NCBI GenBank assembly: GCA_051715345.1
Contig: JBPXJQ010000029.1
Span: 37,240 to 101,239, forward strand
Direction: 5' to 3'
DNA length: 64,000 bases
DNA from: Candidatus Blackallbacteria bacterium
GTDB lineage: Bacteria; Cyanobacteriota; Sericytochromatia; UBA7694
A program made the translations under genes and the position numbers. The notes beneath the pieces are model-generated. The model was given only the letters and a program-made list of their open reading frames with translations. It was not told the DNA's origin and did no database searches. Shown one piece after another: positions 37,074 through 41,191 of the stretch. Numbering within the stretch: position 1 is the stretch's first letter; each line of letters opens with the position of its first letter.

Positions 37074-37613
37074 GTGAAAGAACGGAAAATCGGCCCTGCC
37101 GTCGTGCGTTTGCTGCAAGGGGATATTATGGCCTGTGAAGTCGATGGACTGATCAATGTCACGGGCAAAGCGCTTTCCCATTTGGAAAACCAGCCAAAAC
37201 CGGGCTTGCACGGCGCTGAAGACCTCGAGGCCACTTTGTTTACAGGCCAAAACCGCGACAAAGCGGTGGTCATGACCCAGGCCCAATTTCTCAGGGCTAA
37301 AAATGTGCTCAATACCCTCAGCGTAGAAACCACCAGCACCAATGGTGCCAAAAAAATTCGCAAAACCATGCGTTCGATTCTCGAAGAAGCCCAGGAACAA
37401 GGCTTAGAAAGTCTTGCCATTCCAGCGATTGGCACGGGCATCGGCAAATTTCCCTTGGACAAATCTGCCGAAATTTTGATCGACGAACTGGCCCGCAGTG
37501 TCAGTTCCCCCGGAAACCACCTGCGCAAAATCATATTTGTACTCGAAAACCAGAAAAGTTATAAGGTCTTTGAGCAGGTGCTGGAACAGTTTGATTATTC
37601 GGAGTATTTTTGA
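37074..37613 (+). CDS. Macro-domain protein (ADP-ribose / O-acetyl-ADP-ribose binding or hydrolysis)
   Basis: GDIMACEVDGLINVTG (GDIT...DAIVNAAN-like) and SLAIPAIGTGIGKFP motifs. The stop overlaps the next start (TGATG). Confidence 0.6.
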   Translation: MKERKIGPAVVRLLQGDIMACEVDGLINVTGKALSHLENQPKPGLHGAEDLEATLFTGQNRDKAVVMTQAQFLRAKNVLNTLSVETTSTNGAKKIRKTMRSILEEAQEQGLESLAIPAIGTGIGKFPLDKSAEILIDELARSVSSPGNHLRKIIFVLENQKSYKVFEQVLEQFDYSEYF

Positions 37614-38512
37614 TGTCTGAACCTATTTCTCTCTACCATGGCCATTTTTTCAATCGCAATGGCCTCAAATACCATTATCTCGATCAAGGCCAAGGTGACC
37701 CTGTGGTCATGGTGCATGGCAATCCAACCTGGTCTGTCTATTACCGCAATCTGGTCAAGGCCCTGAGCCCCCAGTTTCGCTGCATTGTGCCTGATCATAT
37801 TGGCTGTGGCTATTCGGATAAGCCCGATGACAGCCAGTATAATTACACCCTCGGCAGCCGGATTGACGATTTGGAAGCGCTTTTGAATCACCTGGGGGTC
37901 AACAAAAATGTGACCCTGGTTGTGCATGATTGGGGCGGTTTAATCGGTCTGGGCTGGGCCCTGCGCCACATGGATGCAGTCAAACGCCTGGTGATATTTA
38001 ATACTGCCGCTTTTCATCTGCCCAATACCAAACGCCAGATTCCCTGGCAATTGGCACTGGGCCGTCAAACCCGATTGGGTGCTTGGCTGATCGAAAACCT
38101 CAATGCCTTCAGTGTGGCGGCGTCTTGGGTGGGTTGTACCGAACACCCGATGTCGGCCAAATTGCGTAAAATTTACCAATCTCCTTATAACACCAAAGCC
38201 AATCGGATTGCCACCTTGCGCTTTGTACAAGATATTCCGCTGCACCCGGAGGATCCCGCTTTTGCCTTGGTCTCTGAAGTCGAAGACAATCTTGAACGCT
38301 TCCGCCATCTGCCCACTTTGATCTGCTGGGGCTTAAAAGACTTTGTCTTTGACGGTGCTTTTCTCAAGGTTTTTGAAGACAAATTGCCCCAGGCTGAAGT
38401 CCATCGCTTTGAACAAGCGGGCCATTATGTTCTTGAAGACAGGGCGGCTGAAATTGTGCCCTTGGTGCAGGCTTTTATGGGCCAAAAGGCCCCAGAACCC
38501 GTACTTTCATGA
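37613..38512 (+). CDS. oleB: Haloalkane-dehalogenase-like alpha/beta hydrolase, OleB-like
   Basis: HGNPTWSVYYRNL and the Asp nucleophile elbow VHDWGGLIGLGWA. It sits directly upstream of the OleC and OleD homologues. Confidence 0.55.
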   Translation: MSEPISLYHGHFFNRNGLKYHYLDQGQGDPVVMVHGNPTWSVYYRNLVKALSPQFRCIVPDHIGCGYSDKPDDSQYNYTLGSRIDDLEALLNHLGVNKNVTLVVHDWGGLIGLGWALRHMDAVKRLVIFNTAAFHLPNTKRQIPWQLALGRQTRLGAWLIENLNAFSVAASWVGCTEHPMSAKLRKIYQSPYNTKANRIATLRFVQDIPLHPEDPAFALVSEVEDNLERFRHLPTLICWGLKDFVFDGAFLKVFEDKLPQAEVHRFEQAGHYVLEDRAAEIVPLVQAFMGQKAPEPVLS

Positions 38513-38522
38513 AGGCCTTGAT

Positions 38523-40205
38523 ATGACTGCGGTACTTTCGGCTCCTGCCAATATCGCCTCTGCGCTCTATGCTTCTTACAAGACCCAACCGCAGGCCACA
38601 GCGATTATTCTGGCACAGAAACCCGATCGAAAGGGCCGTTTGTCGTATACCCACTACAGCTTTGAGACCCTGGTCAAGGAGACCGAGGTGCTGGCTGCTG
38701 GACTCAAAAATAAGGGGATTGTCCGTGGCATGCGCACCGTCTTGATGGTGCCTCCCAGTCTGGAATTCTTTGCCCTGATGTTTGCCATGTTAAAATCCGG
38801 GATCGTGCCCGTATTGATTGATCCTGGCATGGGCCTCGACAATCTTAAAACCTGTCTGCAAGAGGCTCAACCAGAGGCGTTTGTGGGGGTGACCAAGGCC
38901 CATCTGGCACGCAAAATCTTGGGCTGGGGCAAAGACACAGTCAAAATCAACGTAACTCTCGGGCCCAAACTCTTTTGGGGCGGTTCTACTTTAAATGAGC
39001 TGCGGCGCTTTGGCCAAAAATCGCCGCTAACAGGCGTGGCTGATACCCGCCCTGAAGAGCTGGCGGCGATCCTCTTTACCAGCGGCAGCACAGGCGTTCC
39101 CAAAGGCGTCGTCTATCAGCATTTGCAATTCTTGGCCCAAATTGAAAGGATCCGTGAAACCTATCAGGTTCAACCCGGAGAGGTTGATTTGGCCACGTTC
39201 CCGCCTTTTGCCCTGTTTGACCCCGCTTTGGGTATGACCTCGGTGATACCCTGGATGGATCCCACCAAACCGGCCTTGGTCAACCCTGAGTATATTTTTG
39301 ACGCGATTGAACGCTTTCAGGTCACTCATATGTTCGGCTCGCCCGCATTGCTCAATCGCATTAGCCGCGCTGGCCAAGCAAAACAGATCCATTTGCCTTC
39401 GCTGCGCAGAGTGCTCTCTGCTGGCGCACCCGTTCCCTGGCAGACTCTCGAACGCATGCAGTCCTTGTTAACTGCAGAAGCCCAAATTTATACGCCCTAT
39501 GGCGCAACCGAATGTCTGCCTGTGGCCAGTATTAGCAGCCGCGAAATTCTGAGCGAAACCCAGCTTTTAACCCGTGAGGGCAAAGGGGTTTGCATTGGTA
39601 AAGCCGTAAACGGGGTCGAAGTGGTGATCATCCCCATTACTGATACACCGATAGCCGAATGGGATGACTCCCTGGTTTTGCCCGTGGGTGAATTAGGGGA
39701 AATTGTCGTCAAAGGCGATAACGTGACCACCGCTTATTTTAACCGCCAGGCCTCAACTGATTTGGCAAAAATTGCCGACAGTGATGGCGGCGTGCGCCAC
39801 CGCATGGGCGATTTGGGGTACATCGATGCCCAAGGGCGGATTTGGTTCTGCGGCCGAAAATCCCACCGCGTGATTACAGCACAAGAAACACTTTTCACCA
39901 TTCCCTGTGAGGCGATCTTTAATACCCATCCCGATGTCTATCGCACGGGTTTGGTGGGTGTGGGCGAACCTGGTCAAATTCAGCCCGTGGTCTGTGTCGA
40001 ACTCGAAAAAAATCCCGGCCAATCGCCGAATCAGATCATTCTCGATTTACAAGACTTGGCCCAAAAATATCCACATACCCGCGCAATTCGGCATTTTTTA
40101 ATTCACCCGGCATTGCCTGTGGATATCCGCCACAACTCCAAGATCTTTCGCGAAAAATTGGTCCCCTGGGCCACAGAGAAATTGGCTTTGGGGGTTGCAA
40201 ATTGA
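38523..40205 (+). CDS. oleC: AMP-dependent synthetase/ligase, OleC-like (beta-lactone synthetase family)
   Basis: [46 protein letters not shown] and [22 protein letters not shown] resemble OleC. The B-C-D gene order supports the call. Confidence 0.6.
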   Translation: [560 protein letters not shown]

Positions 40206-41191
40206 AAGTATTTGTCACGGGTGGGGGCGGATTTTTGGGGCTGGCAATTGTAAGGCAATTAATTGCTCAGGGCCATGACGTGGTCAGTTATTCTCGCGGT
40301 GTTTATCCCGATTTAAACGCGCTGGGTGTCGAACACCGCCAAGGAGATCTCGATGCTCCCAATCGCTTGGTTGCGGCTCTCAAGGACTGTCAGGCTGTGG
40401 TGCATGTGGCTGCCAAGGCCGGTATCTGGGGGAGTTATGAATCGTTTCACAGTGCCAATGTGCGCGGTACCGAAAACGTGATCTCAGCCTGTCAGCAGGC
40501 GGGCATTTCCAAATTGGTCTATACAAGTTCACCGAGTGTGGTTCACAATGGCCAAGATCTTGAAGGCGTAGACGAAAGCACGCCTTACCCGACCCATTTT
40601 GAGGCCTTTTATCCCCAGACCAAAGCGTTGGCTGAGAAAATGATTTTACAGGCCAACAGTGAGTCACTTGCCACTGTCTCGCTGCGGCCCCATATCATCT
40701 GGGGGCCGGGTGATCCGCATTTTGTGCCCCGGTTGGTGGCCCGCGCCAAAGCTGGTCGCTTGCGTCTGATCGGCAACCGCGATCCCAAAGTTGACACCGT
40801 TTACGTCGAAAATGCTGCAACCGCGCATGTCTTGGCATTAAACAAACTTGAGCCAGGAGCCACAATCGCAGGCAAGGCCTATTTTATCACCCAAGACCAG
40901 CCCGAAACGGTCTCTCAATTTGTCAATCGGATTTTGGACGCTGCGGGCTTGCCTCCTGTTACCCGCCGTGTCCCTGTGCGCGTGGCTCATTTGGCTGGTT
41001 CCGTGCTGGAATCCGTTTACCGGGCCTTCCATTTGCCCGGTGAACCGCCCATGACCCGCTTTATGGTCAGCCAGTTTTCGACCTCCCATTGGTTTGACAT
41101 TTCAGCGGCTCGCCGAGATCTGGGCTATGAACCTGTGATCTCGACGGAAGCTGGCATGATGATGCTCAAACGTTGGTTACAATCGACTTAG
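40202..41191 (+). CDS. oleD: NAD(P)-dependent 3-beta-HSD / epimerase-family reductase, OleD-like
   Basis: [18 protein letters not shown] Rossmann motif and YPQTK (YxxxK). Start overlaps the oleC stop. Confidence 0.6.
   Translation: [329 protein letters not shown]

Follow-up and report, generated by a model that had tools for sequence, protein, structure and literature searches.

The 64-kb stretch of Candidatus Blackallbacteria bacterium DNA analyzed here (class Sericytochromatia; contig JBPXJQ010000029.1), referred to below as the window, contains four consecutive plus-strand open reading frames (ORFs) at 37074–41191 in a tight operon layout; these encode a macro-domain protein (macro) and OleB-like, OleC-like and OleD-like proteins. 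In head-to-head olefin biosynthesis the thiolase OleA is the source of a 2-alkyl-3-keto acid; OleD reduces the 2-alkyl-3-oxoalkanoate with NADPH, OleC carries out ATP-dependent closure of the 2-alkyl-3-hydroxy acid to a beta-lactone, and OleB decarboxylates the lactone to a cis-olefin. An earlier reading of this DNA from its letters (the sequence-only reading) had placed three genes here in the B-C-D order, with the macro gene ahead of them and the operon divergent from prs. The ORFs and their Pfam matches (Macro, Abhydrolase_1, AMP-binding and 3Beta_HSD) bear this out, and every motif that it quoted ([78 protein letters not shown] and Y137xxxK141) can be found in the translated sequences. The features of the region are as follows.

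35731–36852, minus strand: prs, ribose-phosphate diphosphokinase (TIGR01251, 310 bits), the divergent neighbor of macro
36853–37073, no strand assigned: divergent prs/macro intergenic region of 221 nt, presumed to hold promoters of both prs and the macro-oleBCD operon
37074–37613, plus strand: macro-domain protein, 179 aa, GTG start (PF01661, 54 bits against a cutoff of 22)
37613–38512, plus strand: oleB-like gene for a candidate beta-lactone decarboxylase, a haloalkane-dehalogenase-type alpha/beta hydrolase of 299 aa (Abhydrolase_1, PF00561, 121 bits)
38523–40205, plus strand: oleC-like gene for a candidate olefin beta-lactone synthetase of the ANL superfamily, 560 aa (PF00501, 189 bits; NF006754, 754 bits)
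40202–41191, plus strand: oleD-like gene for a candidate 2-alkyl-3-oxoalkanoate reductase, an extended short-chain dehydrogenase/reductase of the 3-beta-hydroxysteroid dehydrogenase type, 329 aa, TTG start (PF01073, 198 bits)
41205–42002, minus strand: convergent CHRD-domain gene (PF07452, 42.6 bits), which lies 13 nt past the oleD stop and marks the 3' boundary of the operon

The macro stop codon (TGA) and the oleB ATG share one base (TGATG, 37611–37615), and the oleC TGA and oleD TTG overlap by 4 nt (TTGA, 40202–40205); an alternative oleB start, a TTG at 37610, would give a product of 300 aa. The genes had been described as overlapping, which is correct for these two junctions but not for oleB and oleC. 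With the oleC ATG at 38523, which is the start in the public gene call and agrees with alignment of homologs, the spacer is 10 nt, and only a start at the earliest in-frame TTG (38343) would make the two genes overlap. TTG and GTG starts are common among the long ORFs of the window. Annotation in public records is generic ('macro domain-containing protein', 'NAD-dependent epimerase/dehydratase'). A protein from a 59,773-bp JGI contig that falls in the same 90% cluster as the window OleD (P0247) is called as a single 889-aa gene, 'epimerase / acyl-CoA synthetase', a length equal to OleC (560 aa) plus OleD (329 aa); either OleC and OleD are genuinely fused in this close relative, or the call results from read-through or a frameshift where the two genes overlap (TTGA). 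At the downstream end, the CHRD gene is not found at the corresponding position in four related loci (L022, L036, L037 and L044; related loci are designated by L numbers).

The divergent prs/macro region probably drives the macro-oleBCD operon. It contains a weak sigma-70-like match on the minus strand (36968–36941), and a scan for promoters and terminators gave nothing usefully above shuffled expectation. Rfam returned zero families at gathering score on both strands of the whole window, this spacer included, and the prs/macro spacers of relatives do not align and show no conserved element across the equivalent regions.

Identity of the three Ole-like enzymes

The sequence-only reading had preferred an OleC-like enzyme to an ordinary fatty-acyl-AMP ligase (FAAL), a choice that agrees with both the NCBIfam scores and the grouping of the ligase within OleA-linked clades. 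The OleC-like protein scores 754 bits with NF006754 (cutoff 478), 692 bits with NF045786 and 673 bits with NF045785, compared with at most 178 bits for any ordinary acyl-CoA ligase model; the OleD-like protein scores 441 bits with NF042422 and 436 bits with NF042423. These values lie below the curated equivalog cutoffs, which are 900 (NF045786) and 850 (NF045785) for OleC and 580 for OleD. The OleCs of complete oleABCD clusters likewise fall below cutoff (597–738 bits), as does the OleD of the complete L011 cluster (465 and 380 bits); the cutoffs are therefore narrow, and low scores are no argument against membership. The OleB-like protein gives 172 bits with the haloalkane dehalogenase model NF002938, below its cutoff of 241, and there was no OleB-specific model among the NCBIfam matches. 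It is 48–57% identical to OleA-adjacent OleBs of other phyla, and the three window proteins together are 44–57% identical to the proteins of complete clusters. A PDB search found no solved structure of a close OleC, the best match being the adenylation domain of a nonribosomal peptide synthetase (NRPS; E = 2.7e-24).

Most of the positions that are invariant in other phyla are retained in these proteins. OleB keeps 58 of 62 such columns, including HGNP (from H36), H106-D107-W108-G-G and H272, and OleC keeps 71 of 79, including T186/G188/K194, E330, D430, R445 and K540, with the ANL core motifs present (P-loop T/S-G-x-x-K, YGxTE, the A7 GD, the A8 Arg and the A10 Lys). In OleD, 52 of 59 columns are kept, S109, Y137 and K141 among them, and TGGGGFLG is conserved. 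Changes specific to the Sericytochromatia Ole proteins are all conservative (V/I, L/F, F/L), and none is radical.

We also compared the relationships of these proteins and the selection acting on their genes. In neighbor-joining (NJ) trees, which were built without support values, the Sericytochromatia OleB, OleC and OleD proteins form one clade each, nested among clades in which oleA lies beside oleB. Pairwise ratios of nonsynonymous to synonymous substitution (dN/dS) are 0.02–0.07 for oleB, 0.02–0.05 for oleD and 0.02–0.08 for the Ole proteins overall; over all four genes the range is 0.02–0.12, similar to that of the neighboring relA, prs and ABC transporter genes. The Ole ORFs are intact across loci at 62–68% OleC identity. 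By these comparisons the three proteins are true orthologs of OleB, OleC and OleD, not a generic dehalogenase, FAAL or epimerase, and the four genes are working genes without sign of altered specificity. The presence of OleB leads us to expect an olefin as the end product rather than a lactone.

Linkage of oleA to oleBCD

OleA was sought with a hidden Markov model (HMM) built from 12 OleA proteins of related loci, which scores its own 12 members at 541–681 bits; all stop-to-stop ORFs of at least 50 aa in six frames were searched (--max, E at most 10). There are zero matches in the window, which extends 37 kb upstream and 23 kb downstream of the operon, and Pfam reports no thiolase in the 27 window ORFs scanned, including all ten of 300–410 aa. 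The earlier observation that the window has no OleA is thus confirmed, and an oleA just outside the operon, which would have made this an ordinary ole cluster, does not occur within either of these distances. Nor does the HMM match anything in the flanking sequence, up to 10 kb, that was fetched around each of 12 Sericytochromatia loci. When an eight-sequence OleA profile was searched against a database of 5.8 billion proteins, the best 120 of 7833 matches were nearly all unlabelled or from Acidobacteriota, and none of these was labelled Sericytochromatia.

We found 33 related loci, with one genome per species scanned. Of the 17 loci of other phyla, 12 (from Acidobacteriota, Desulfobacterales, Planctomycetota and Bradymonadia) have oleA upstream of oleB, either adjacent or one gene away. 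The linked FabH-like genes carry the OleA signature EPxx[AS]...DxxNACL, and the L011 OleA scores 448 bits with NF006720 (PRK09258 class). Five non-Sericytochromatia loci, from Desulfobacteraceae and Gemmatimonadetes, have oleBCD without oleA in the 7–8.6 kb fetched upstream of oleB (L006, L021, L023, L025 and L029; L023 is from Desulfosudis oleivorans). The missing linked oleA had been regarded as an unusual property of the window, and these five loci argue otherwise; an unlinked or missing oleA is not unique to Sericytochromatia. The Sericytochromatia oleA is most likely encoded elsewhere in the genome, as it appears to be for several of the Desulfobacteraceae loci.

Other variations in ole gene layout were seen among the related loci. 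In deltaproteobacterial ole loci a conserved ORF of ~190 aa lies between oleB and oleC, with 32–94% pairwise identity, at the following positions.

L015: 9276–9962
L021: 9399–9974
L023: 9417–9977
L029: 9369–9974

No Pfam family was found in the two copies scanned (L015 and L023). We considered whether this ORF is a relative of macro and rejected the idea, since the L023 copy does not resemble the macro protein; the ORF is an uncharacterized Ole-associated gene. In a Desulfobacterales locus (L009, 28–10338), a PfaC-like polyunsaturated fatty acid synthase gene (KS-CLF-AT-FabA) is followed by oleA, a 4'-phosphopantetheinyl transferase gene, oleB and oleC; pfa and ole genes are thus linked here, as one would expect in organisms that produce polyunsaturated hydrocarbons. 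Two Stieleria (Pirellulaceae) loci (L024 and L028) encode OleC homologs with 46% identity, and up to 10 kb of flanking sequence shows no homolog of oleB or oleD; these represent a further non-standard ole layout in Planctomycetota.

History and properties of the macro gene

The macro-oleB-oleC-oleD unit is present in 12 loci (the window, L002–L005, L010, L022, L032, L035, L036, L037 and L044), which have three kinds of flank. The loci closest to the window (91–97% OleC identity) are in Candidatus Sericytochromatia metagenome-assembled genomes, and the more distant Sericytochromatia loci are at 57–68%. The macro gene is found in 0 of the non-Sericytochromatia ole loci examined.

The relationship between macro and prs extends further. 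prs is divergent from macro in the window and in L002–L005, L010, L032, L035, L036 and L044, and a profile search identified the same divergent arrangement without oleBCD in L038/L039, L041/L042 and L043, the macro proteins there having 35–49% identity. The gene that follows macro at these loci is unrelated to ole and encodes GIDE (L038/L039), an unknown protein of 1125 aa (L041/L042) or a DUF4442 protein (L043). In an NJ tree, the macro homologs without oleBCD form a grade outside a single clade that contains all of the ole-linked macros; the motif INVTGKxL is invariant within that clade and is not found in the homologs outside it. The occurrence of prs/macro pairs without oleBCD, together with the outgroup branching of their macro proteins, indicates that macro is the older resident and that oleBCD was placed behind it. 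On this sequence evidence the pairing of prs with macro came first, and a single later acquisition probably set oleBCD directly behind macro. The proposal that macro is 'fused into' the Ole operon as a pathway-specific feature is not supported by these homologs, and macro has probably not been recruited as an Ole component. We also considered that macro had replaced OleA and rejected this, prs/macro pairs predating oleBCD. In L043 (8001–8978), the DUF4442 protein (PF14539) is encoded 3 nt behind macro; we take DUF4442 to be a hotdog-fold, thioesterase-like protein, in which case this would be another lipid-type gene directly behind this macro.

An AlphaFold2 model of the macro protein (pLDDT 85, pTM 0.82) has a disordered segment at residues 37–47, and Foldseek matches the model to Af1521, macroH2A1.1, PARP9 macro2 and YmdB at TM scores of 0.69–0.78. 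A profile of the family matches PARP14 (E = 2e-16) and a Methanobrevibacter macrodomain (E = 7e-15) in the PDB. Conservation extends to the Asp that contacts adenine (G16-D17) and to loop 2 (P117-A-I-G-x-G122). MacroD-type hydrolases have NAAN and a Gly-rich catalytic loop 1 (GGG[V]) that holds the distal ribose and diphosphate; these, along with the helix after the loop, are replaced in macro by NVTGKxL and a variable, low-pLDDT insert. Because of this replacement, a MacroD-type hydrolase activity of the macro protein is doubtful, as judged from the sequence and the model. NCBIfam macro equivalog models score 24–64 bits, far under their cutoffs of 200–891. The macro gene has dN/dS values of 0.04–0.12.

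Neighboring genes

In both the window and L001, a 218-aa 2-thiouracil desulfurase family gene (PF04463; 35067–35723, minus strand) separates relA from prs. BLASTP found no homolog of it between relA and prs in the close relatives L002, L003, L004 and L010, and the relA-prs gap is only ~20–30 nt in L002 and L010; the difference reflects a recent insertion or deletion. Further downstream, five co-oriented genes at 47584–54933 (plus strand) may together serve small-molecule synthesis or lipid modification as a cluster. Their products are an ADH_N zinc-dehydrogenase-like protein (312 aa), an asparagine-synthase-like amidotransferase (628 aa), an S-adenosylmethionine-dependent methyltransferase (256 aa), a 291-aa protein without a family and a 973-aa protein with AMP-binding and NAD_binding_4 domains. 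The last of these has an adenylation domain and a thioester reductase, as in carboxylic-acid reductases or NRPS-like enzymes.

Origin and function of the operon

The explanation that we favor, and think rather likely, is that a new lineage carries a canonical OleBCD module, transcribed together with a macro gene that was there before it and served by an unlinked oleA. It builds on the identity and conservation of the genes, the layout of the operon, the purifying selection and the relative age of prs/macro described above, and it supposes enzymatic activities, co-transcription and an oleA elsewhere. An ancestor of one Sericytochromatia subclade would have gained the oleBCD module once, and the module would have been fixed directly downstream of a resident macro gene whose divergent pairing with prs was already in place. 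Macro and oleBCD would now be translationally coupled as a single operon, with the promoter region between prs and macro as its probable driver. An unlinked OleA would supply the 2-alkyl-3-keto acid, and OleD, OleC and OleB would then make the olefin by the head-to-head long-chain pathway. For the macro protein, the likeliest role is still one of its own, tied to prs and concerned with nucleotides or ADP-ribose, and it would not perform a catalytic Ole step.

Several observations weigh against this explanation. The OleA HMM finds nothing in the flanks of any of the 12 Sericytochromatia loci, and the Ole and macro trees are NJ trees that carry no support values. In each of the five loci where we looked at gene calls or at the junction sequence, macro overlaps oleB. 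In L022 and L037 macro-oleBCD adjoins a glutathione S-transferase gene, without prs. A functional link of macro to Ole would explain these two observations no less well than inertia. The four genes have therefore stayed together through at least one rearrangement, and this could reflect either function or the mere difficulty of breaking overlapping genes.

One alternative, which we regard as unlikely, is that the pathway is independent of OleA, and that OleD, OleC and OleB act on beta-keto or beta-hydroxy acids from another source. The substrates could be made by another condensing enzyme or could be unsubstituted 3-hydroxy fatty acids, and the product could be a different olefin (e.g. a terminal one) or a beta-lactone. 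This would account for OleA being seen neither in the window nor at any of the 12 Sericytochromatia loci, it is consistent with macro sitting in the slot held by oleA in the 12 oleA-linked loci of other phyla, and the dN/dS values indicate that the genes are clearly functional. However, nearly all of the invariant columns of OleA-linked proteins are kept and the changes are conservative, with no sign of a change of substrate. Moreover, an unlinked oleA apparently occurs in L006, L021, L023, L025 and L029, and published surveys start from OleA, such that split clusters are under-reported.

A second alternative, for which we hold out less hope, is that macro is a working partner of OleBCD, recruited after their arrival, and acts as a nucleotide-binding subunit or a regulator that senses or binds AMP, NADP(H), ADP-ribose or the ADP moiety of acyl-CoA. 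The overlap of macro with oleB wherever genes were called at an ole-bearing locus (1, 14, 8 and 14 nt), the integrity of macro-oleBCD where prs is gone (L022 and L037), the invariant motif peculiar to the ole-linked macro clade, and the strong purifying selection on macro are all consistent with such a partnership. Nonetheless, members of this macro family also pair with prs where there is no oleBCD, and all of the non-Sericytochromatia ole loci examined manage without a macro gene. An ADP-ribose-like ligand takes part in no known Ole step, a link between the two was not found in the literature searched (in keeping with the earlier statement that no macro-Ole association is known), and overlapping genes are hard to separate by rearrangement in any case.

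Both departures may be combined in the proposal that this Sericytochromatia clade runs OleBCD without any OleA and with a degenerate macrodomain protein as a dedicated fourth subunit, where it could bind the nucleotide part of an acyl carrier or cofactor. We consider the combination very improbable; if true, it would imply another condensing enzyme or hydroxy-acid feed and a hydrocarbon or lactone made by an undescribed route.

Least credible, and all but ruled out, is that oleBCD is a decaying remnant left after oleA loss, or an unrelated dehalogenase, acyl-AMP ligase and sugar epimerase: scores below the curated cutoffs (OleC 692 against 900, OleD 441 against 580) and the generic public annotation could be read this way, but complete oleABCD clusters show the same sub-cutoff pattern, the Ole dN/dS values are 0.02–0.08 with ORFs intact at 62–68% OleC identity, the catalytic motifs are intact and the proteins are nested within Ole clades, and we reject a decaying remnant on dN/dS and motif conservation.

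Comparison with known systems

The window operon shares its B-C-D order, catalytic motifs and NCBIfam pattern with the oleABCD clusters of Xanthomonas campestris, Shewanella oneidensis and Micrococcus luteus, and with their homologs in Desulfobacterota, Acidobacteriota and Planctomycetota. It differs from them in having no oleA within 64 kb, in the macro gene upstream of oleB and in its Sericytochromatia host. The oleACD beta-lactone clusters (lipstatin and nocardiolactone type) likewise combine OleC- and OleD-type enzymes in a layout other than the four-gene one; these keep oleA and have no oleB, whereas the window operon keeps oleB and has no linked oleA. In the split oleB-x-oleC-oleD loci of Desulfobacteraceae (L021, L023 and L029) and in L006 and L025, the oleB, oleC and oleD genes are also grouped without an oleA in the 7–8.6 kb fetched upstream of oleB. 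None of these five has macro, and L021, L023 and L029 have the ~190-aa ORF between oleB and oleC.

The macro protein has the same fold as the MacroD/Af1521/YmdB and the macroH2A1.1/PARP14-type macrodomains, and the GD(I/L) adenine-contact motif is conserved. Its second phosphate loop, PAIG(S/T)GI, resembles those of macroH2A1.1 and PARP14. In contrast to the hydrolase macrodomains, with their NAAN and Gly-rich loop 1, it has NVTGKxL and a non-conserved, disordered insert.

Published surveys of Ole genes seed on OleA and require neighboring oleBCD genes, and they therefore miss split layouts such as those in Sericytochromatia and Desulfobacteraceae. In the literature searched we found no report of Ole genes in Sericytochromatia or Melainabacteria, and nothing relevant on unlinked oleA. 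Were oleA truly absent from these genomes, the operon would present a real biochemical puzzle; more probably, a pathway already known elsewhere occurs here in a new lineage, its genes split between sites.

In photosynthetic cyanobacteria, hydrocarbons are products of the ADO or OLS routes. With a conserved and strongly constrained OleBCD operon in their non-photosynthetic sister class, the phylum would have a third route to hydrocarbons, one apparently gained by lateral transfer.

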